NCBI GenBank assembly: GCA_964626705.1 | Contig: CAZVGL010000002.1 | Span: 386-64,385, forward strand | Source of the DNA: an uncultured Candidatus Saccharibacteria bacterium | GTDB taxonomy: Bacteria; Patescibacteriota; Minisyncoccia; Phycocordibacterales; UBA2163 | Direction of reading: 5' to 3' | Length of the DNA: 64,000 bases | Shown: in pieces, positions 29,693-41,253 of the stretch | Layout of the letters: every line of letters starts with the position of its first letter | Numbering within the stretch: position 1 is the stretch's first letter | Notes under the pieces: generated by a model | Databases searched by the model: none | What the model saw: only the letters and a program-made list of their open reading frames with translations | Told to the model about the DNA's origin: nothing | Made by a program: the position numbers and the translations under genes

Positions 29693-29755
29693 ACTTATAA
29701 GTTATACACATCATTTGGTACCTAACAACCAAAAGAGTGTATATAATATAAATAA

Positions 29756-30517
29756 ATGCAGAAAATAATCACAAAAACAATAATACTCCTTGCAGTATTA
29801 ACTCTCGCACTATCTGTAAACTACATCTTTGCAGCATGGACAGGACCAACAGAGGCTCCACCAGGAGGAAATACTCCGACACCTATTCATATTGGTACAA
29901 CAGATCAAGTAAAAGACGGAGGGCTATCACTTACTGGTCTTTCTGTGTTTGGCGGTGGGTATTTTCAGGGTAATGTAGGAGTTGGAGTAGTCACACCCAT
30001 AGAAGCACTTGAAGTTGCTGGTAATATAAAAACAACAGAAGGAATAAAAGTTGGTAACACAATAGACACTGATGCTGGAACTATCCGATGGACAGGTACT
30101 GATTTTGAAGGATACGATGGAACAGAATGGAAATCTCTGACGGCTGAAGGCGGTACAACGACAACAATAGTGTCTACAGATTATACGGAATGTGTTGGTT
30201 TGGGTGGTAGCTGGGTAGAAGTAGGTCAGATTTGTTATATAGCTGGTACAAGCTGTCCTTCTGGATGGGAAGCAGAAGAAAACTATAGCAGTACAGTACC
30301 AAATTCAGGATCTAGTGGCGGAATAGGAAGTACGTGTAATTTCAATGCCCCTCGACCGTCTTGCACGACAGGAAGTCACACAAGAGAAAATTCAGGTGTT
30401 GAAAGTTGTTCTTACGGTTATAAATCTCAGTGTAATACGAGAAACTGTAATCCTAATAGATGTACTGTATCGAGTGTTTCTGCCACTCAAACCGAAATCG
30501 GTTGTACTAAAAACTAA
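29756..30517 (+). CDS. secreted Cys-rich repeat protein (paralog A, one C-terminal Cys-rich module)
   Basis: Signal peptide MQKIITKTIILLAVLTLALSVNYIFA, a Gly/Thr-rich N-domain, then a ~100-aa module with about 10 Cys ending TQTEIGC. The N-terminal ~125 aa are shared with 36202..37248. Confidence 0.7.
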   Translation: MQKIITKTIILLAVLTLALSVNYIFAAWTGPTEAPPGGNTPTPIHIGTTDQVKDGGLSLTGLSVFGGGYFQGNVGVGVVTPIEALEVAGNIKTTEGIKVGNTIDTDAGTIRWTGTDFEGYDGTEWKSLTAEGGTTTTIVSTDYTECVGLGGSWVEVGQICYIAGTSCPSGWEAEENYSSTVPNSGSSGGIGSTCNFNAPRPSCTTGSHTRENSGVESCSYGYKSQCNTRNCNPNRCTVSSVSATQTEIGCTKN

Positions 30518-30580
30518 TTTAGTTAAAATAAAAACCATCAAAAAACCGGCAACAGGCGGATTTTTTGATATAATAACTTT

Positions 30581-31675
30581 ATGCTTAAGAAAATCGACAG
30601 GCCGTTTTTAATAACAGTTATTATCCTAGTAGTTGCAGGATTTTTTATTTTCACTTCTGCATCACTCGGACTTTTAGCACGTGACGGAGCACGATTTTCT
30701 TCTGTAGCATTTAGTCAGTTTTTCTTAGGGATCTTCCTTGGCGCTATAGCACTTCTTATAACAACAAAGATCAAATATACGTTTTGGAGAAAGTACGCAT
30801 TTTATATATTTATAGGATCAGCCATAGCAACATTGCTTGTATTTGTACCTGGTCTTGGTGTGTCGTCAGGAGGTGCACAACGTTGGCTTGATTTTGGTTT
30901 TGTAACATTCCAACCTGCAGAAATGCTTAAGATAGGGTTTGTAATATATTTTGCTGCATGGCTTACAAATGCAAAAGACAGACTACACACAATAGGACAT
31001 GGAATAGTACCTTTTGTTGTACTGCTTGCCATAACAGGTGGAATACTTTTGTCTCAACCTGACACTGGTACACAACTTGTAATACTCGCTTCCGGTATCG
31101 CAATGTTCATCGCTGCTGGCGCAAGGTGGCGTGACATATTTGCACTCGGAGGCATAGCTGGAGTATCACTGACAGTACTTGCGTATATACAACCATATGT
31201 AAAAGACAGGATACTTACTTTCATAAACCCAGCGAGTGATGCTTTAGGTTCTGGCTGGCAGATAAAACAATCGCTTATAGCAATAGGCTCAGGAGAGATA
31301 TTTGGGCGAGGTTTTGGGCAGAGTGTACAAAAGTTTCAATATCTTCCAGAGCCAGTAGGGGACTCTATTTTTGCAGTAGCAGCAGAGGAGTTTGGCTTTA
31401 TAGGAAGTGCTTTTATAATCACACTTTTTCTCTTTCTTGCTTTTAGGGGACTTAAAATAGCAACAAAAGCCCCTGACAACTTTAGTGGACTGGTAGTTGT
31501 TGGAATTGTTATACTTATAGCATCACAGTCGTTTATAAATATAGGGTCAATGCTGGGAGTAATGCCACTCACTGGTCTTCCGCTTTTATTTATAAGCCAT
31601 GGTGGAAGTGCTCTACTTTTTGCATTGGCGGAAATAGGTATTGTACTTAATATATCGAAATTTAGAAAAATTTAA
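30581..31675 (+). CDS. ftsW: SEDS-family peptidoglycan glycosyltransferase FtsW/RodA
   Basis: 364 aa with 10 TM helices. SEDS blocks (GAQRWLDFGFVTFQPAEMLKIGFVIYFA; QSLIAIGSGEIFGRGFGQS). Confidence 0.85.
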   Translation: MLKKIDRPFLITVIILVVAGFFIFTSASLGLLARDGARFSSVAFSQFFLGIFLGAIALLITTKIKYTFWRKYAFYIFIGSAIATLLVFVPGLGVSSGGAQRWLDFGFVTFQPAEMLKIGFVIYFAAWLTNAKDRLHTIGHGIVPFVVLLAITGGILLSQPDTGTQLVILASGIAMFIAAGARWRDIFALGGIAGVSLTVLAYIQPYVKDRILTFINPASDALGSGWQIKQSLIAIGSGEIFGRGFGQSVQKFQYLPEPVGDSIFAVAAEEFGFIGSAFIITLFLFLAFRGLKIATKAPDNFSGLVVVGIVILIASQSFINIGSMLGVMPLTGLPLLFISHGGSALLFALAEIGIVLNISKFRKI

Positions 31676-31685
31676 TTATTTAAAA

Positions 31686-32816
31686 ATGAAAATAGTATTT
31701 ACAGGTGGGGGAACAGGAGGACATTTTTATCCTATAATAGCCGTCGCAGAAGAAATAAATAATGTTGCAAAAGAACAAAGATTGCTTACCCCAAAGCTAT
31801 ATTATATTGCACCTGAAAAATACGATGCACGAGCTCTGTACGAAAACAATATAACATTCAAGAAAAGTCCGGCTGGAAAAATACGTAGATATTTTTCCAT
31901 TTGGAACTTAATAGATAAATTTAAAACAGGTATCGGTGTAATAAAAGCAACACTTCAACTTTTTGCTATTTATCCAGACGTAGTGTTCAGCAAGGGTGGG
32001 TATGCAAGCTTTCCAACTGTATTTGCTGCAAAGATATTACGCATACCTGTTATTATCCATGAGTCTGATGCGGTGCCAGGTAGAGTAAACCTTTGGTCAG
32101 GAAAATTTGCTGTGAAGATAGCTGTGTCATACCCAGAAGCAGTTTCTTTTTTTGACAGAGAAAAGGTTGCTTTCACAGGCAACCCTGTGAGAAGAGAGTT
32201 ATTCACACTCGCACATGAAGGGGCACATGAATACCTTAAACTAGAAAAAAATGTACCAACTATCTTAGTACTTGGAGGTTCACAAGGTGCAAAAAGAATA
32301 AACGATACACTCATGGAAGCTCTACCGAGACTTGTAGAGAAGTACCAAATCATTCACCAAACAGGGAAGAAGAACTTTAAAGAAATAAAATCAACAACAC
32401 GGATAATATTAGAGGGGACAGAGTACGCACATAGATATAAACCGTTTGATTTTCTAAACACCCTTGCAATGCGTATGTCAGGTGGTGCTGCAGACTTAGT
32501 AGTATCTCGTGCTGGATCAGGTGCAATAGCTGAAATAGCTCTATGGGGACTGCCCAGTATTATAGTTCCTATTTCACAAAATGTGTCACACGACCAACAT
32601 AAGAATGCCTTTACGTACTCAAGAAGCGGTGCAACCGTAGTTATTGAAGAAAAAAATTTCACACCAAACCTACTCGCTTCTGAAATAGACCGACTCATAA
32701 GTGACAAGACTCTTACAAAAAAGATGCGTGACGGCGCAAAAGAATTTGCAAAGCCAGACGCTGCACGAAAGATAGCAGAGGGGATTATAGCAACAGCTCT
32801 CAAACACGAGGAGTAA
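31686..32816 (+). CDS. murG: UDP-GlcNAc--lipid I N-acetylglucosaminyltransferase
   Basis: KIVFTGGGTGGHFYP N-terminal motif and a GT-B C-domain. ATG at 31686 is preferred. The track start at 31641 overlaps ftsW and adds 15 non-conserved residues. Confidence 0.9.
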   Translation: MKIVFTGGGTGGHFYPIIAVAEEINNVAKEQRLLTPKLYYIAPEKYDARALYENNITFKKSPAGKIRRYFSIWNLIDKFKTGIGVIKATLQLFAIYPDVVFSKGGYASFPTVFAAKILRIPVIIHESDAVPGRVNLWSGKFAVKIAVSYPEAVSFFDREKVAFTGNPVRRELFTLAHEGAHEYLKLEKNVPTILVLGGSQGAKRINDTLMEALPRLVEKYQIIHQTGKKNFKEIKSTTRIILEGTEYAHRYKPFDFLNTLAMRMSGGAADLVVSRAGSGAIAEIALWGLPSIIVPISQNVSHDQHKNAFTYSRSGATVVIEEKNFTPNLLASEIDRLISDKTLTKKMRDGAKEFAKPDAARKIAEGIIATALKHEE

Positions 32817-33447
32817 TAGTTTTTATTATATTCTCATGAACTTCTTCTACGGACGGAGTAGCATCTATATCTAGAAATATAAAATCAGAGTGATCTTTTA
32901 AAGACTCCATGACTATATCTGTCTTTATACGATATACATCAATCCTATTTTTTATAACCTCATGCGCATCATCGATCCTCTTTGAACCATCTTTTGCTGT
33001 ACGATTTATTAATCTTTCTTGCAGAACTTCATCTGACGCACATAAGCGAATAAAATATCTCTTACTTTCAGGCATCACATAGTGCATAAGTTTATTATAT
33101 GTATCCACTTCATCTTGATTACGAAGTATTCCTTCAAATATAATATGACTTTTCCCATCATTTTTTTTTAATAAAGTTTGCGTGATCAAATCCATCGTCA
33201 TGGCACCAGGAATAGTTTCTCCTTTAATATAAATACTTTCATGTATTATGCTTTTCATATGTTCTGTATAAAAAGGATTCTCTGTAGTCTCTCTTAGTCT
33301 TGTTCCATTGTCATGACGTATAACCTCAATATTTGAATTATCTTTTAATAGAAACTCTTCTAACTTATCTGCTTGAGTCTCTTTTCCAGAACCAGGGGGT
33401 CCAACAACGATAAAAATACTTGGTTTTGTAAATATATTTTTTGACAT
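32800..33447 (-). CDS. P-loop nucleoside monophosphate kinase family protein (adenylate kinase-like)
   Basis: FIVVGPPGSGKETQA P-loop and an AK-like LID segment (KRIDDAHEVIKNRIDVYR). 215 aa. Exact substrate unknown. Confidence 0.5.
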   Translation of the reverse strand: MSKNIFTKPSIFIVVGPPGSGKETQADKLEEFLLKDNSNIEVIRHDNGTRLRETTENPFYTEHMKSIIHESIYIKGETIPGAMTMDLITQTLLKKNDGKSHIIFEGILRNQDEVDTYNKLMHYVMPESKRYFIRLCASDEVLQERLINRTAKDGSKRIDDAHEVIKNRIDVYRIKTDIVMESLKDHSDFIFLDIDATPSVEEVHENIIKTITPRV

Positions 33448-33502
33448 ATGGATATGTTACACTGATTATATTATATAAACAAATCAAGACGTAAAAAGTA
33501 AC

Positions 33503-34849
33503 ATGAGCGAGGATAAGAACAAAGAAATACGAACACGAATAGCGCCGTCGCCGACGGGGGATTTGCATATTGGGACTACACGCACAGCTTTGTTTAGCTA
33601 TCTTTTTGCAAAGCAAAATAATGGGAAGTTTATAATGCGTATTGAGGATACTGATAAAGAACGTAGTGAAGAAAAATTTGAAAAAGATATCCTAGAAGGT
33701 TTAAAATGGCTTGGTCTTAAGGCGGATGAAACACATCGCCAATCAGAACGTACAGATGTATATAGTAAATATATTCAACAAATGCTTGATGCTAATACTG
33801 CTTACATATCAAAAGAAGAAAGTAAAAAAGAAGTTGGAAAAGAAATAGAAGTAGTGCGTCTTAAAAACCAGAATAAGAAAGTTAAATTTGAAGATATAGT
33901 TAGAGGAGAGATAGAGTTCGACACTACAGAACTTGGTGATTTTGTAGTAGCCCGTAGTGTAAGCGAGCCGTTGTATCATTTGGCTGTAGTGATAGATGAC
34001 AACGAAATGTGTATCACTCATGTTATCCGTGGAGAGGACCATATATCTAATACTCCACGTCAGATCCTTATACAAGAAGCGCTAGGAATAGAGCGACCTA
34101 AATATGCCCATATTCCGCTCATTTTGGCCCCAGATAGGTCCAAAATGTCTAAACGGCGTAATGCCACCTCAATTACAGAATACCGCGAAAAAGGCTATAT
34201 TTCTAGCGCTTTGGTCAACTATATGGCTCTACTTGGCTGGAATCCAGGCACAGAACAGGAATTATTTACTTTAGACGAGCTAATAGCAGAATTTAGCCTA
34301 GAAAACATACAGAAGGGTGGGGCTATTTTTGATATAGAAAAGCTCAATTGGTTCAATAAGGAATACATAAAGAAAATGTTGGACACCGAGTGTCCAACAT
34401 TTCTAACAGAGATCAAAAAGTATCTTTCTGGTGATGATGAAATAATAAAGAAAATTATTCCTATAATTACAGAGAGAATAAATGTGTTTGAAGATATTGA
34501 AGAAATGAAAAAAGCAGGGGAGTTAGATTACTTTTTTAATCAGCCAGAATATGACGCAAAAAATTTACTTTGGAAACAAGATAATGATCTAAAAGTTTCA
34601 GCTGAGCATTTAAAGAAAGTTATAAATTTACTTGAAAAAATTTCTGAAGATAATTTTACTCAGGATGAGATCAAAAAAGCAGTCTGGGAATATGCCACAG
34701 AAGTTGGAAGGGGGTCAGTCCTCTGGCCGATGCGCTACGCACTATCAGGTCGCGACAAATCACCAGATCCATTCCAGCTTGCAGAAGTATTAGGAAAAGA
34801 CGAAACTATAAATCGCATAAACAATGCAATTAATAAAATCGCTGGATAA
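33503..34849 (+). CDS. gltX: glutamyl-tRNA synthetase
   Basis: RIAPSPTGDLHIGTTRTALFSY (HIGH motif), KMSKR, and HLAVVIDDNEMCITHVIRGEDHISNTPRQ. 448 aa. Confidence 0.9.
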   Translation: MSEDKNKEIRTRIAPSPTGDLHIGTTRTALFSYLFAKQNNGKFIMRIEDTDKERSEEKFEKDILEGLKWLGLKADETHRQSERTDVYSKYIQQMLDANTAYISKEESKKEVGKEIEVVRLKNQNKKVKFEDIVRGEIEFDTTELGDFVVARSVSEPLYHLAVVIDDNEMCITHVIRGEDHISNTPRQILIQEALGIERPKYAHIPLILAPDRSKMSKRRNATSITEYREKGYISSALVNYMALLGWNPGTEQELFTLDELIAEFSLENIQKGGAIFDIEKLNWFNKEYIKKMLDTECPTFLTEIKKYLSGDDEIIKKIIPIITERINVFEDIEEMKKAGELDYFFNQPEYDAKNLLWKQDNDLKVSAEHLKKVINLLEKISEDNFTQDEIKKAVWEYATEVGRGSVLWPMRYALSGRDKSPDPFQLAEVLGKDETINRINNAINKIAG

Positions 34850-34987
34850 GGTCGTTCCTCGAGGAGGAGTGATAGCGACGGGAGAGGTGCGACCTTGAAG
34901 GAATTGGTACAGATACCTTATTATGGTATACAAATATTAAAAGCAAAAAATCTGACTCTATGTCGGATTTTTTGGTATAATAGTTTA

Positions 34988-35995
34988 ATGTTAAAAAAGA
35001 TAGAAGATAAACAAGACAAAGGGGAAATAATTATCTACCAAACTTCTAAAAAAGAAGTCGGTTTAAAGGTACGACTTGAAAAAGATACTGTGTGGCTTGA
35101 TGCACATCAGATTTCAGAATTATTTAACATCGATAGAACAGTTATTGTCAAACATATTAGAAATGTATACAAGACTGATGAGCTAGCCGAAAAAGCAACC
35201 TGTGCAAAAATTGCACAGGTTGCGGCTGATGGGAAGATACGAAAGATGAATACTTATAACCTAGATATGATTATAAGTATTGGGTATCGTGTTAACTCCA
35301 AGAATGCTACGCAATTTAGAGTTTGGGCGACAAAGGTATTAAGACAACATATTCTACAAGGGTATACAATCAATGAAAATCGGCTTTTAGAGGCGCGAGA
35401 CAAGTTTAGAGAATTACAAACGGCTGTCAGTTTTCTACAAAATAAAGCGCAAAAAAAGCAATTAAAAGGACAAGAAAAAGAAATTCTGAATTTATTAGCT
35501 GACTATTCAAAAACACTTACTATTCTGGAACAATATGATAAAGGAAAACTTAAAACACCGAAAGGTAAAAAAGCAAGTTTTGTTCTTGAGTACGAAAAAT
35601 ATCAAGATGTAGTTTTGGAGCTTAAAAAAGAATTAATTTCTAAAAAAGAAGCAAGCGATATATTTGGCAATGACGTAACTAATAAATTTGACAGTATAAT
35701 AGCAAATCTATACCAGACATTTGGTGGAAAAGAGCTATATAAAGGACTTGAAGATAAAGCGGCGCATCTTTTGTATCTTACTATCAAAGATCACCCTTTT
35801 ACAGATGGTAACAAACGCATTGGGGCATTTTCTTTTGTATATTTTCTAGATAAAAATAATTACCTTCATCGTAAAAATGGAGAGAGAAAAATTAATGACA
35901 ATGCATTAACGGCTTTGGCGCTTCTTATTGCTGAAAGCGATCCAAAAGAAAAAGATGTTATTATAAAAATTATTATTAACCTACTACACGATTAA
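34988..35995 (+). CDS. RhuM-family N-domain fused to Fic/Doc-family domain
   Basis: N-terminal RhuM-like block (DAHQISELFNIDRTVIVKHIRNVY...FRVWATKVLRQHILQGY). C-terminal Doc-type motif HPFTDGNKRIGA (HxFx[DE]GNKR). ATG at 34988 lies 7 nt after an extended -10 TGGTATAAT. The track start at 34895 is in a GC-rich structured spacer. Confidence 0.75.
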   Translation: MLKKIEDKQDKGEIIIYQTSKKEVGLKVRLEKDTVWLDAHQISELFNIDRTVIVKHIRNVYKTDELAEKATCAKIAQVAADGKIRKMNTYNLDMIISIGYRVNSKNATQFRVWATKVLRQHILQGYTINENRLLEARDKFRELQTAVSFLQNKAQKKQLKGQEKEILNLLADYSKTLTILEQYDKGKLKTPKGKKASFVLEYEKYQDVVLELKKELISKKEASDIFGNDVTNKFDSIIANLYQTFGGKELYKGLEDKAAHLLYLTIKDHPFTDGNKRIGAFSFVYFLDKNNYLHRKNGERKINDNALTALALLIAESDPKEKDVIIKIIINLLHD

Positions 35996-36201
35996 AATAA
36001 ATTATGCTCAAAAAGATTATTTTGTTAATACACCGAGCGTTACACCAATACTAAGCCTTAAATATTAATTATCCCACATACTGTAAATGGAATGGAAAAG
36101 GAGTTTCGTATCTTTTCCATCGTCTAAACAAATAATCTTGAGTGGAGATATCCACATACGTTTCGTATTAAATCTTAAAAAAACATATATACTATATATA
36201 A

Positions 36202-37248
36202 ATGCAAAAAATAATAACTAAAACTATAATATTACTCGCAGTTTTAACATTAGCATTATCGGTGAACTATATATTCGCAGCGTGGGTAGGGCCAACAGAA
36301 GCTCCGCCTGGAGGAAATACTCCGACACCTATTCATATTGGCACAACAGATCAAGTAAAAGACGCGGGGTTGTCACTCGACGCTCTTTCTGTGTTTGGTG
36401 GTGGATATTTTCAGGGTAGTGTGGGAGTCGGTGTGGTTACACCTACAGAATCACTTGAAGTTGCTGGTGGTGTAAAGGTTGGCAACAGTACAAATACAAA
36501 TGCTGGAACCATACGCTGGACTGGGACAGATTTCGAAGGATATGACGGGACAGAATGGAAATCCCTAACTTCTGAAGGTGGTACAACTATAATATCTGGA
36601 GATGCTACGGATTGTAATAATGTTGGTGGAAATTGGGTGGAAGCTCAAGGCGTTTGCTATATTCCTGGCACAAGTTGTCCTGCTAACTGGACATCGAAAG
36701 AAAATTATAGCAGTACGAGTGGTGATAGTTGCGCAGGTTACCCAAATGAAGGTAATTATGAGGGTGAACCTTGTGAAAATGCACCATATTCATGTTCAAC
36801 AGGATCTCATGTAAGAGAAAATTCAGGAACTGAATCCTGTAGATACAATCGTCTAGTTCGTCGTCGTGATTGTGCATATCAACCAAATCAATCATGCACC
36901 GCCACTCAAACAGAAGTTGGTTGTGAGAAAGCGTCAACAAAATGTAACAATGATGGCGGCGACTGGAATGATGCCCAAGATGTTTGTTATATAGCTGGTG
37001 CAAGCTGTCCTTCTGGATGGAAATCAAAAGAAAACTATAGCAGTAGTGTACCGAACACTTGCCAAGGAAGAAATGACGAAGGAAATATCTGTGGTCAAGA
37101 AACAGACTGCTCAACAGGCTCTCATGCTAGAGAAAATATTGTCATAGAAAGTTGTGTATATCAAGATACTTACTACTACACAAGCTGTCAGCCAACATTT
37201 GGTACCTGCAATGCTGCTCAAACTGAGATTGGATGTATCATAAATTAA
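36202..37248 (+). CDS. secreted Cys-rich repeat protein (paralog B, two tandem C-terminal Cys-rich modules)
   Basis: Same signal peptide and N-domain as 29756..30517. It is then followed by two ~100-aa Cys-rich modules, each ending [TA]QTE[IV]GC. Confidence 0.7.
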   Translation: MQKIITKTIILLAVLTLALSVNYIFAAWVGPTEAPPGGNTPTPIHIGTTDQVKDAGLSLDALSVFGGGYFQGSVGVGVVTPTESLEVAGGVKVGNSTNTNAGTIRWTGTDFEGYDGTEWKSLTSEGGTTIISGDATDCNNVGGNWVEAQGVCYIPGTSCPANWTSKENYSSTSGDSCAGYPNEGNYEGEPCENAPYSCSTGSHVRENSGTESCRYNRLVRRRDCAYQPNQSCTATQTEVGCEKASTKCNNDGGDWNDAQDVCYIAGASCPSGWKSKENYSSSVPNTCQGRNDEGNICGQETDCSTGSHARENIVIESCVYQDTYYYTSCQPTFGTCNAAQTEIGCIIN

Positions 37249-37265: not shown

Positions 37266-37293
37266 AAAAAATCCGCAAATTAGCGGATTTTTT
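37266..37293 (+). terminator. rho-independent terminator after the paralog-B gene; its T-tract merges into the next promoter
   Basis: Stem aaaaaatccgc / gcggatttttt with loop aaatta. It is followed directly by GGTATAAT. Confidence 0.6.
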
Positions 37294-37310
37294 GGTATAA
37301 TAATTTAATG
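37294..37310 (+). promoter_or_regulatory. extended -10 (TGGTATAAT) positioned 6 nt from the ATG: leaderless-type start module
   Basis: TATAAT at 37296-37301, then aattta, then ATG at 37308. The same architecture and near-identical sequence occur at 34974-34990 and 30567-30583. Confidence 0.5.
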
Positions 37311-38573
37311 CTTAAAAAGACATTTATTATTCTAATACTAATATTTGTAGGGTTTAGTACCACTCACGCTTCTATTGTAGATGAGCTAAAAGACCGTATA
37401 TCAGACAGAAATACTAAAATAGAAGAACTTGAAAAAGAGATTGTAAAATACCAAAAAGACCTTGAAGTAGTTGGGGAAGAAAAACAAACTCTTAACAGTG
37501 AGGTAAAAACACTAGACATATCGCGACAAAAGATAGGGACTGATATAAAATTAACCCAAAACAAAATAGACTCTACAAATTACCAAATACAAGATCTTTC
37601 CTTAGATATTAACGGAAAAGAAAACAGTATAAGTAAAAACACAGAAGTTATAGCAGAGACGATACGTACGATGAATGAAATAGAGTCTGAATCTCTTATT
37701 GAGATAATACTGTCAAATAACGATCTTTCAGAGTTCCTCAACCAAATAGACACACTGCAACAGTTCCAGTCAAAAATGCGTGATGACATAAAACGCCTAA
37801 CTTCACTGAAAGAAGATCTAGAAGATAAGAAAGGACAAACAGAGAAAAAGAAAAAGGAGCTTGCAAATTTTAAAGGCGACTTGTCTGACCAAAAATATGT
37901 ACTTGATATAAACAGAAAAGACAAAAACACACTTCTTAGTATTACAAAAAACAAAGAGTCTAACTATCAAAAACTTTTAGATGAAAAAGTTGAAGCCCGC
38001 AAAGCTTTTGAACGTGAACTTTTAGATTTAGAATCACAACTTCAGATAGAGATAGATACTTCCAAAATCGCAAAAGCGGGGAAGGGCGTGCTTGCATGGC
38101 CACTTGATAAAGTTACAGTTACACAATATTTCGGTAACACAAAGTTTGCAAAGTCAGGTGGGTACAACGGAAGTGGGCATAATGGAATGGACTTTCGTGC
38201 TACAACTGGTACAAAAGTCAAAGCTGCACTTACTGGAACAGTAGTGGCTGTTGGAAATACAGACGCAGTGAAAGGTTGTTACTCTTATGGTAAATTTGTA
38301 CTAATAAAGCACAACAATGGCCTTTCAACCCTTTATGCTCACTTAAGTTTTGCGAGCGTTAAAAAAGGAGATACTGTAATCACCAGTGATGTGATCGGCT
38401 ACTCCGGCAACACAGGCTACTCAACAGGGCCGCATCTTCACTTTACAGTTTACGCCAGCCAAGGTGTGCAGATCGTCCGTTATGGAGACTACAAAGCTAA
38501 AACAAACTGCGCTGACGCCAATATACCAGTCGCCCCACTTAATGCGTATTTGAATCCTATTGATTATTTATAA
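37308..38573 (+). CDS. M23-family peptidoglycan endopeptidase with N-terminal coiled-coil (EnvC/NlpD-like)
   Basis: Signal/TM anchor, then about 230 aa of coiled-coil. LytM domain with HxxxD (GHNGMDF) and HLH motif (YSGNTGYSTGPHLHFTVY). Confidence 0.85.
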   Translation: MLKKTFIILILIFVGFSTTHASIVDELKDRISDRNTKIEELEKEIVKYQKDLEVVGEEKQTLNSEVKTLDISRQKIGTDIKLTQNKIDSTNYQIQDLSLDINGKENSISKNTEVIAETIRTMNEIESESLIEIILSNNDLSEFLNQIDTLQQFQSKMRDDIKRLTSLKEDLEDKKGQTEKKKKELANFKGDLSDQKYVLDINRKDKNTLLSITKNKESNYQKLLDEKVEARKAFERELLDLESQLQIEIDTSKIAKAGKGVLAWPLDKVTVTQYFGNTKFAKSGGYNGSGHNGMDFRATTGTKVKAALTGTVVAVGNTDAVKGCYSYGKFVLIKHNNGLSTLYAHLSFASVKKGDTVITSDVIGYSGNTGYSTGPHLHFTVYASQGVQIVRYGDYKAKTNCADANIPVAPLNAYLNPIDYL

Positions 38574-40364: not shown

Positions 40365-40817
40365 TTACTGTTTCTTCATCCTACTTTTAAACAGCCCAGA
40401 TAAGCTCCAGATATGGTTTGAACTCATGCTTGCAAGCACTAAGAATGCTGCTATATATATAATATGTTCATCTACCAAGTATGCATGCTCGCCTACTTTT
40501 GGAAACGTAAGTCCTGGGAAGTAATATAGAGCCATCATTAAAGCACCAAGATGTGCACTGCATCTGACAAGAATACCAAGTATCAAAGCTGCACCTATAA
40601 GTGTAAGCCCCCATTGGTTAAGGAAATCAATAAACGGTAGTATCTCAGGTGATGCAAGCCATCCATAAAACCCTGAAAATGTGTTAGCGTGTTCTAGAAA
40701 ACCTTTAGCTGTCCATTCTGGATTCGTGACTTTTGTAAGCCCTGCGTATAAAAACAACCAACCAAGTGTAAGACGTAGTATAAGTACTGCTGAATCTGTT
40801 TTAATTAATTTCTTCAT
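40365..40817 (-). CDS. DoxX-family membrane protein
   Basis: 150 aa with 4 TM helices. LRLTLGWLFLYAGLTKV is a typical DoxX N-terminus. Confidence 0.75.
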   Translation of the reverse strand: MKKLIKTDSAVLILRLTLGWLFLYAGLTKVTNPEWTAKGFLEHANTFSGFYGWLASPEILPFIDFLNQWGLTLIGAALILGILVRCSAHLGALMMALYYFPGLTFPKVGEHAYLVDEHIIYIAAFLVLASMSSNHIWSLSGLFKSRMKKQ

Positions 40818-41253
40818 ATTGTGTATTAATATTTAGATTATTATTCTTTGATTTTATCATTGCAATCAAACTAAGTATAAAGATAGTTGTGGATAATGTT
40901 GCAGAAATCATACAATACGAACAGATAGATTCCAATATAAACAACTGCGTATATACGAACCACATAGACATTAGAAACCCTACACCAGAAAGACTAAGGA
41001 GTGACATAAGGATTTTTCTATTTTTTGATCTTAAATATAAAATACTCAAGACAAATATAGAGATATAAAAAACCATTCCAAGCACTGCTACTGGTATACC
41101 CAATATTGTGGAGTAAATACTCGTAGTTACAAAATCACAACCTTCGAAGATAGAACAGTTTACACTATCGTGAGTAAACCGCTTTATAGTTAAATATGTA
41201 GCATCAGAAATACCAACAATACTTAATATTAAAATAGTAATATTAGACCACAT
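40801..41253 (-). CDS. vitamin K epoxide reductase (VKOR)-family protein
   Basis: 150 aa membrane protein. Loop Cys pair (VNCSIFEGC), GIPVAVLG and the active-site CxxC (CSYC) in the last TM. Overlaps the DoxX start by 17 nt. Confidence 0.65.
   Translation of the reverse strand: MWSNITILILSIVGISDATYLTIKRFTHDSVNCSIFEGCDFVTTSIYSTILGIPVAVLGMVFYISIFVLSILYLRSKNRKILMSLLSLSGVGFLMSMWFVYTQLFILESICSYCMISATLSTTIFILSLIAMIKSKNNNLNINTQYEEIN

Follow-up and report, generated by a model that had tools for sequence, protein, structure and literature searches.

Known Modular Fibers and the Genes A and B

Modular fibers with swappable tips are an already known kind of protein, represented by phage receptor-binding proteins and by the mosaic adhesive trimer (MAT) fibers of Bdellovibrio bacteriovorus. 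MAT fibers are trimeric and combine an invariant N-terminal domain with swappable tips for prey recognition (Caulton et al. 2024, PMC10769870; PDB 8OND, 8ON4, 8OL4, 8OML, and 8OJN). Here we describe two paralogous genes, A and B, located on a 64,000-nucleotide stretch of DNA (the window) from an uncultured Candidatus Saccharibacteria bacterium (contig CAZVGL010000002.1). Each gene encodes a signal peptide, a leader, a stalk motif, and one (A) or two (B) C-terminal modules rich in cysteine (Cys). Judging from sequences and predicted structures, A and B are probably, though by no means securely, members of a family of small exported proteins that resemble miniature adhesive fibers and carry swappable, fast-evolving binding tips. 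The Patescibacteria-specific leader, the very small format, the knob with five disulfides and three loops, and the three fixed chromosomal slots appear to be undescribed, and our literature searches found no description of the family in the literature covered.

Host recognition and attachment by uncultured Patescibacteria are poorly understood outside a few Saccharibacteria, in which type IV pili are implicated. The family described here is small, easily synthesized, abundant, and clearly modular, its display part being conserved and its tips evolving fast. Should these tips serve in host recognition, they would provide a sequence handle for predicting host range from metagenomes, baits for host pull-down, and a compact disulfide scaffold of a new kind, with three variable loops. 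The logic of a conserved base plus a swappable tip, known from phage fibers and Bdellovibrio MAT fibers, would also extend to a third group living on other cells.

Architecture of the A and B Proteins

A and B align with 68% identity over 261 columns (BLASTP, E 2e-112), and the second module of B matches the module of A with 45% identity (E 8e-23). A first-pass annotation, made from the sequence alone, had described the pair as paralogs with the same signal peptide, a Gly/Thr-rich N-domain, and one or two modules of about ten cysteines ending in [TA]QTE[IV]GC, and all of this holds, the coordinates of both open reading frames included. Residues 1-28 are identical (28/28), the N-domain contains 20-21% Gly, 14-18% Thr, and zero Cys, and the Cys count is exactly 10 in A and exactly 20 in B, split 10 + 10. 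The module ending is ATQTEIGC in A, and in B it is ATQTEVGC (module 1) and AAQTEIGC (module 2). The stalk of B is 6 amino acids (aa) shorter than that of A. The sequence of A (P0003 exactly) is present on 13 contigs, and that of B (P0001 exactly) on 21 contigs from several samples, all identical. No third paralog was found in the window by tblastn.

Alignment of A with 64 homologs (alignment A1) resolves five parts: signal peptide, leader, stalk unit, a short variable linker, and Cys module (Table 1). By inspection, the signal peptide has an n-region of charge +2 and a hydrophobic core of 14 aa, and its I-F-A|A site agrees with the (-3,-1) rule; the cleavage-site pattern across the family is ..NY[IL]FA|AW. 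AlphaFold2 places a helix across aa 2-28 of A. The shared N-terminus of A and B (MQKIITKTIILLAV..) contains neither the Gly-Phe junction nor the Glu5 of a class III prepilin signal. The leader that follows is about 40 aa long, with the consensus W-GPTQAPPGGNT-TP-H[VI]G---QVKDGGL and many near-invariant columns (W28, G30, P31, P35, G38, N39, P43, Q51, G55, and L57 in the 65 homologs).

Specialized and conserved export signals include the YSIRK/GS and KxYKxGKxW signal peptides of Gram-positive surface proteins and the class III prepilin signals. The A/B family is comparable in that its predicted export signal is conserved in sequence across the putative surface-protein set of one genome, and such conservation across paralogs implies recognition by a dedicated pathway or partner. 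The motif itself is different, ALSVNY[IL]FAAW-GPTQAPPGGNT, and has no prepilin G|F..E signature.

The stalk unit follows the consensus GNVG[IV]G--P---L-V-G ... AGTIRWTG-DFEGYDG--W-SLT, and is modeled in A as four short strands at low confidence (predicted local distance difference test, pLDDT, 60-72). When the A1 profile was compared with PDB sequences, the best match was to the beta-helix region of a Bdellovibrio MAT fiber (8OND, whole-sequence E 6.6e-5), with weaker matches to 8ON4, 8OL4, and 8OML (E 0.04-0.07), all of them through a short GNVGIGT..P..KL.V.G motif. Since the similarity is short, we treat it as a lead on architecture and not as proof of membership. Very long proteins predicted to lie at the surface in Bacteroidota, Krumholzibacteriota, Moranbacteria, and Saccharibacteria contain the stalk unit as well, often in several copies. 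A tblastn search of 50,697 phage records with the stalk gave one match only, to an unannotated jumbo phage. This match lies in an uncultured 462-kb phage (LR756500.1, 348199-348321), with 50% identity over 46 aa (E 3e-5).

The likeness to MAT fibers extends beyond this motif. Both are multi-paralog families of cell-dependent bacteria, and in both an invariant N-terminal part carries structurally diverse, swappable C-terminal tips, including previously unseen tip folds. The GNVGIGTxxPxxKLxVxG stalk motif is common to both, and the relatives P0107 and P0134 also show GI.FPDGT.QTTA. On the other hand, A and B have a single stalk unit of about 60 aa in proteins of 250-350 aa, whereas MAT fibers have long beta-helices in 600-1,100 or more aa. 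The A/B family also has no S74 chaperone domain, its N-terminal leader is a different sequence specific to Patescibacteria, and its disulfide-rich knob is not among the MAT tips with reported structures (PMC10769870). MAT fibers are trimeric, whereas A and B are known here from genes and single-chain models. Phage tail fibers (e.g., those with Gp53-like_C tips, PF21882) share with the A/B family a modular stalk and tip, rapid tip evolution, and mosaic recombination, the tip of the phage fibers being receptor-binding. Unlike them, A and B are encoded on the chromosome at conserved housekeeping loci, with a predicted Sec signal and no surrounding phage genes; the stalk motif occurs in only 1 of the 50,697 phage records, and the Cys module has no match in BFVD.

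The Cysteine-Rich Module

The Cys module had been flagged as unrecognized, and it stayed so in every profile and structure search. Scans of A and B against Pfam, NCBIfam, and PHROGs gave nothing, or only matches with E >0.03. When 34 modules were scanned singly against Pfam, only stray single matches appeared (E 0.04-1), with no family matched by more than one member and, apart from these, no match to EGF, TSP1, WAP, FOLN, or other known Cys-rich extracellular domains. The module profile found nothing below E 7.9 among PDB sequences. Foldseek searches of the PDB with the full-length model of A and the tandem-module model of B returned noise (best E 0.35-1, root mean square deviation >20 Å), as did a search of BFVD with the tandem model. 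An exhaustive phmmer search of 1.84 billion cluster representatives retrieved only 31 clusters at E ≤ 0.001, the Cys-module profile returned only 4 proteins from a word-indexed protein database, and a search with the leader alone returned only 3 fragments. In nearly all of the phmmer clusters the module is C-terminal, the exceptions being P0142 and the upstream copy of P0138. It is also found behind FN3 domains, a prepilin-like N-terminus (P0129), and Gly-rich regions, and twice in tandem in P0138.

For Cys and loop statistics we extracted 107 modules from all retrieved proteins. The number of Cys is even in 105 of them and exactly ten in 78. Their consensus is C1-x3-GG-W-x-C2Y-x5-C3PSGW-x5-NYSST-x4-C4-[loop]-C5-[loop]-C6sTGSH-R-N-x3-E-C7-Y-[loop]-C8-x5-C9-A-x2-TEIGC10, with W, H, R, N, E, and the terminal TEIGC as conserved framework residues. 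Mean pairwise identity is 43-49% in the framework segments and 8-10% in the loops C4-C5, C5-C6, and C7-C8, which vary in length from 0 to 26 residues. Disulfide pairing was addressed through covariation of Cys positions across modules. C4 and C9 are both present in 89 modules, both absent from 14, and present singly in 4; that they are kept or lost jointly suggests a C4-C9 disulfide.

The AlphaFold2 model of A has a mean pLDDT of 72, and its Cys module is mostly above 90, exceeding this value outside the loops and folding as one short helix plus beta-hairpins. The tandem modules of B (aa 131-348) were modeled with a pLDDT of 87.6 and a predicted template modeling score of 0.73.

Bacterial VKOR homologs act in disulfide formation. 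A VKOR-family gene and an adjoining DoxX gene lie 3.5 kb downstream of B, and are a plausible route to extracytoplasmic disulfides and a candidate system for the putatively exported Cys-rich proteins. The same DoxX/VKOR pair (40365-41253 in the window) is also kept downstream of the M23 peptidase gene on contigs L087 and L088.

Family Members, Alternative Tips, and Chromosomal Loci

A search with B retrieved 162 proteins, all from metagenome-assembled genomes of Patescibacteria, Parcubacteria, or Paceibacteria where a source was named. The canonical leader is present in 106 of the best 120 of these homologs. Within the 106, the Cys module is present in 74 (~70%), of which 15 have a TSP1-like insert in addition, and the remainder have at least six other kinds of C-terminal region, including Gly-rich regions, TSP1-like inserts, and further types. 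At least seven tip types occur on one leader. Tips were grouped by motif classes, single-linkage clustering having lumped all of them through shared stalk or TSP1-like pieces. The clearest alternative is a Fib_succ_major tip (PF09603, E 5.7e-36) on the same leader in P0076. Sub-threshold matches link two leader-bearing relatives to H_lectin and to the Gp53-like_C tail-fiber tip, and others point to the TNF-like Pgp3 C-terminal domain. The Fibrobacter succinogenes major paralogous domain (PF09603/TIGR02145) has a local C-P-S-G-W in common with the Cys module; however, the latter is about half as long and has another Cys pattern, and scans of A, B, and the 34 modules returned no PF09603 match up to E 1.

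The first-pass annotation had proposed a diversifying surface or adhesin family on the strength of a shared N-terminal domain and a variable number of modules. The shared N-terminal part, the variable C-termini, the fast-evolving tips, and the multiple copies carried by relatives, where a single copy might have been found, are borne out by comparison with relatives, and a surface or adhesive role is probable; variation in module number, however, is rare. Among the best 120 homologs of B, only B itself and P0002 clearly have two modules, with P0117 a possible third, and the module-only search added P0138. The main axis of variation is loop hypervariability together with the swapping of whole tips. 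The window organism apparently has four leader-bearing paralogs with two tip types, and in one paralog the middle region is distinct, with a GGEQDL neck.

Inserts of about 45 aa that resemble thrombospondin type 1 repeats (C-x-x-F-x-Y-S-x-W-G-x-C...TQTRTV...C..G.P....C) were seen in P0085-P0087, P0093, P0097, P0098, P0109, and P0112; they lie between stalk and tip and are sometimes duplicated. In a Candidatus Campbellbacteria contig (MFAC01000005; L005 10001-12070), the family open reading frame continues for 689 aa past ..TEVGCVKT into a glycoside-hydrolase-looking region, which could reflect a fusion, a lost stop codon, or a sequencing error.

In the window, mraY precedes A and a gene for an M23 peptidase follows B. 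ftsW starts 64 nucleotides (nt) past A and the M23 gene 60 nt past B, each behind a terminator-promoter unit. Relatives keep both loci, mraY-[A-like]-ftsW-murG and gltX-[B-like]-M23 (L001, L004, L006, L008, L010, L011, and L012). At fixed loci the tips differ between genomes, as at the B position in L010 and, at a third locus beside pilus genes (described below), between L002/L003 and L084. The L010 gene (4011-4664) has a TSP1-like insert and another Cys-rich C-terminus in place of the module. Two tandem family genes (3-599 and 604-1755) occupy the mraY-ftsW interval of L008, the second with a GGEQDL "neck" and a different tip, and the gene at the B position of the same contig (6339-6752) is partly masked by N.

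Divergence and Gene Conversion

Between genomes, the proteins flanking A and B are 75-95% identical (ftsW 93-95%, murG 89%, gltX 77%, M23 79-85%), whereas A/B-like proteins of the same genomes are only 50-60% identical. The contrast recurs within the proteins: comparison of A with B gives a dN/dS of 0.61 for the module but of 0.07-0.15 for leader and stalk. The leaders of paralogs within a genome are 83-94% identical, whatever the locus or tip, and those of different genomes 59-88%, mostly 64-80%. Synonymous divergence (dS) between paralogs is nonetheless 0.6-1.5, near saturation and comparable to that of ftsW between genomes (1.1-1.4). Even the signal peptides of A and B, identical in amino acids, have saturated synonymous sites (proportion of synonymous differences, pS, 0.81). 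The uniformity of leaders with near-saturated synonymous sites points to older conversion events and strong purifying selection, even on the signal peptide.

Short recent conversion-like tracts between A and B, for which a check had been proposed, are also present. In the first of these, within the leader, local pS is 0.35 compared with 0.58-0.81 in the adjoining segments; here a stretch of 50 or more identical nt had been reported, which is really 54/55 nt with a longest perfect run of 32 nt. A second tract joins the module of A to module 2 of B, where 22/24 third codon positions are identical, compared with 14/24 in other module pairs, including A versus B module 1. A perfect 125-nt tract running from the ATG is common to two genes with different tips in genome H52.

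A diversity-generating retroelement was considered as a source of the loop variation and rejected. A blastn search (word size 7) found no second copy of parts of A or B in the 64-kb window, a reverse transcriptase not having been explicitly searched for, and the loop lengths of 0-26 aa, the lack of a template-like repeat in the window, and the identity of B on 21 contigs all speak against such a system.

A Proposed Function and Its Alternatives

In the model that we infer, the Sec-type signal peptide and the leader of about 40 aa would take the protein out of the cell, and the leader would probably dock it onto a component of the organism's own cell surface. A single stalk unit of the tail-fiber/MAT type would space, and possibly oligomerize, the protein, and the C-terminal tip would bind. 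In A and B this tip would be the ~100-aa five-disulfide module, two of them in tandem in B; its three hypervariable loops may form the variable binding surface, and it would be the commonest tip of the family. Tips would diversify quickly between species and be traded for unrelated binding domains at fixed chromosomal loci, while purifying selection, aided at times by gene conversion, would keep the leader uniform in each genome. Cell-surface structures of a host or partner organism are likely to be the ligands. A host-cell ligand is suggested by analogy with MAT fibers and by the epibiotic lifestyle of cultivated Patescibacteria, as described in two reports (PMC10633639, PMC11623550).

Several observations weigh against a family of miniature fibers. 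At 250-350 aa, the A/B-type proteins are far shorter than MAT or phage fibers (600-1,100 or more). The match to MAT fibers is a short motif, with a best single stretch at an independent E-value of only 0.006, and the AlphaFold2 confidence is low for leader and stalk (pLDDT 44-72). The identity of B on 21 contigs places the diversification between species and not within the sampled population, in which there is no sign of hypermutation. Finally, the conserved H, R, N, and E of the module could equally mark a catalytic or metal site.

A more specific proposal is that the leader is a Patescibacteria-specific display system, acting as a dedicated N-terminal signal for sorting and for docking to one genome-specific partner (possibly the type IV pilus apparatus) and bearing interchangeable recognition tips, with the knob as a new binding fold that sets which host cells can be attached. 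We put this forward tentatively, as a possibility more likely to fail than to hold. If true, the host range of a large part of microbial dark matter could be read from these genes, which would determine it.

The pilus apparatus enters because of the third locus. On a contig apparently from the window organism (L084, same sample series), two genes with the leader but other tips (351 and 259 aa) lie directly upstream of pilB-pilC, and a Cys-module gene is found at that place in UBA2163 (L002) and co234_bin49 (L003). A and B could on this basis be type IV pilus accessories, either tip-associated or pilus-docked adhesins or substrates of the machinery, whose hydrophobic N-terminus and leader would be recognized by it or assembled with it. 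In all three genomes, family genes lie immediately before an array made up of pilB-pilC, three prepilin-like genes, and a 433-aa gene, with a Cys-module gene in two of the three, and P0129 has a Cys module ending a protein with a prepilin-like GFTLL N-terminus. The unusual conservation of the signal peptide (28/28 with synonymous sites saturated) recalls the structural N-terminal helix of pilins, and type IV pili mediate host binding in cultured Saccharibacteria, according to one report (PMC11623550). However, A and B are not adjacent to pilus genes in the window, and their N-terminus does not show the class III signature (G|F-T-L-I/L-E with Glu5) that is present in the three prepilin-like genes of L084. 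Gene adjacency is, moreover, weak functional evidence in small, compact genomes. We thus consider a pilus accessory unlikely.

The region of this conserved pilus operon (pilB, pilC, the three prepilin-like genes, and the 433-aa gene) is at 3403-12667 in L084, 784-6634 in L002, and 3173-11302 in L003. Ahead of the operon are one or two leader-family genes and a gene whose 348-aa product has GWAWSSNIGWISF-type repeats and, at its C-terminus, acidic ones. The small genes of this locus gave no Pfam match.

The surroundings of A and B themselves suggest another role, in the organism's own envelope: peptidoglycan binding or remodeling during growth and division would explain why the genes lie near mraY, ftsW, murG, and genes for a D,D-carboxypeptidase and the M23 peptidase. 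The mraY|ftsW and gltX|M23 positions are kept in at least six related assemblies, and the module holds conserved H, R, N, and E. The MAT tip Bd2439 was crystallized with N-acetylglucosamine-N-acetylmuramic acid (GlcNAc-MurNAc), so fiber tips can bind muropeptide (PMC10769870). Nevertheless, one would not expect envelope proteins with a housekeeping role to change 3-8 times faster than the proteins encoded beside them, nor to have hypervariable loops and swaps of the whole C-terminal domain. Family members are present at an unrelated locus too, and the synteny of such close genomes largely reflects shared ancestry. An envelope role is quite improbable on this evidence.

A conserved N-terminus with variable C-termini is the hallmark of polymorphic toxin systems. 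If A and B were polymorphic toxins or secreted effectors, the conserved N-terminal part would serve in trafficking and deliver variable toxic C-termini to competitors or hosts. Their architecture fits, the module is small and disulfide-rich as many toxins are, and the stray single-member Pfam matches include Sublancin, WAP, and an anemone toxin, at chance level (E 0.04-1). Yet no small immunity-type gene follows A or B, the next genes being ftsW (after 64 nt) and M23 (after 60 nt), and no toxin family was matched at a meaningful E-value in Pfam or NCBIfam. The recognizable alternative tips are binding domains (Fib_succ_major, lectin-like, tail-fiber-tip-like, and TNF-like) and not enzymes. A toxin function is accordingly a long shot, and small exported fiber-like proteins with binding tips remain the reading that we prefer.

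The last alternative, that A and B, as direct repeats, form the ends of a mobile or recombining cassette with a Fic gene, is extremely improbable and largely refuted by synteny: the two genes are direct repeats around 5.7 kb, a 37-nt unit found upstream of Fic occurs again downstream of B (repeat family D5), and the genome encoding P0002 has the order mraY, two-module B-like gene, M23 that A/B recombination would leave, but the order mraY-[A]-ftsW-murG-gltX-[B]-M23 is kept in Fic-less L001, L004, L006, L008, L010, and L011, the copies enclose essential housekeeping genes and no transposase or integrase, and the P0002 contigs, at only 3.7x coverage, may be assembly joins through the repeated leader.

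The Interval Between A and B and Other Features of the Window

The first-pass annotation had pointed to a 5.7-kb, Fic-containing segment flanked by the two copies. The gap indeed measures 5,684 nt and holds ftsW, murG, gltX, and a RhuM+Fic gene, together with an adenylate-kinase-like gene on the minus strand that this annotation had not named, but it is no unit. The Fic gene is absent from this position in all related assemblies examined, where gltX is followed by the B-like gene after about 60-120 nt. This conserved order without Fic indicates that Fic is a later, lineage-specific insertion, and that its bracketing by A and B has no mobile-element meaning. In the P0002 genome (L087 7279-8223 and L088 5611-6555; ENA ERZ650162/ERZ650159) the order is scpA-scpB-Dac-mraY-[P0002]-M23, with the A-ftsW-murG-gltX stretch missing between mraY and the two-module B-like gene. 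Either the leaders of A and B truly recombined here, or the assembly was joined through the repeat.

Table 1. Positions of genes A and B, their parts, and associated elements in the window.
Feature	Position	Strand	Description
Gene A	29756..30517	+	253 aa; signal peptide, leader, stalk motif, and one Cys module; open reading frame
Signal peptide of A	29756..29839	+	aa 1-28, MQKIITKTIILLAVLTLALSVNYIFA|AW; identified by inspection
Family leader of A	29840..29965	+	aa 29-70, TGPTEAPPGGNTPTPIHIGTTDQVKDGGLSL..SVFGGGYFQG
Stalk unit of A	29966..30145	+	aa 71-130, GNVGVGVVTPIEALEVAG...AGTIRWTGTDFEGYDGTEWKSLT
Cys module of A	30191..30505	+	aa 146-250; subtype without C4 and C9, extra Cys pair in the C7-C8 loop
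Gene B	36202..37248	+	348 aa; signal peptide, leader, stalk, and two tandem Cys modules; open reading frame
Cys module 1 of B	36613..36924	+	aa 138-241; canonical C1-C10 pattern
Cys module 2 of B	36943..37236	+	aa 248-345; canonical 10-Cys pattern; 50% identical to module 1
Gene-conversion-like tract 1	29864..29918	+	54/55 nt identical to 36310-36364 in the leader of B; longest perfect run 32 nt
Gene-conversion-like tract 2	30231..30302	+	64/72 nt identical to 36983-37054 in module 2 of B
TATAAT plus 8 nt upstream of the ATG of A	29742..29755	+	hexamer at 29742-29747; consensus match only
TATACT plus 8 nt upstream of the ATG of B	36188..36201	+	consensus match only
Terminator-like hairpin with T-run, then TGATATAAT, 6 nt, and the ATG of ftsW	30540..30580	+	copy of the unit downstream of B; repeat families D5 and D6
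Terminator hairpin AAAAAATCCGC-AAATTA-GCGGATTTTTT, then TGGTATAAT, 6 nt, and the ATG of the M23 gene	37268..37307	+	repeat families D5 and D6
DoxX gene	40365-40817	-	PF07681, E 9.7e-11; adjoins the VKOR gene
VKOR-family gene	40801..41253	-	PF07884, E 2.3e-25; DsbB-type disulfide oxidoreductase analog

The TATAAT hexamer 8 nt ahead of the ATG suggests a leaderless or near-leaderless start for gene A, and the TATAAT-N8-ATG layout is also found upstream of the orthologs G57_A, G57_B, and L008_B (alignment A3). A scan for promoters and terminators showed no enrichment over shuffles.

The 37-nt unit CGGATTTTTTGGTATAATAaTTTAATGcTtAAAAAGA is present in three copies (30557-30593, 34964-35000, and 37284-37320), the second and third 92% identical. 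In each copy, a terminator tail and an extended -10 box are followed, after 6 nt, by the ATG of a reading frame that starts M-L-K-K; the copies precede ftsW, Fic, and the M23 gene. This layout suggests leaderless mRNAs, and the Fic insertion possibly copied the promoter/start unit. The open reading frame of the RhuM+Fic gene (34895-35995), which begins with TTG, is probably too long. Its probable true start is the ATG at 34985, preceded by a terminator hairpin, TGGTATAAT, and 6 nt, and the Joint Genome Institute (JGI) gene call is a 335-aa product from there.

The adenylate-kinase-like gene (32800-33447, minus strand) lies between murG and gltX, its end overlapping that of murG by 17 nt. It is missing in L010 and L011, where murG is directly followed by gltX, and its equivalent in L008 is only 27% identical. 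Thus, the murG-gltX spacer is another variable spot.

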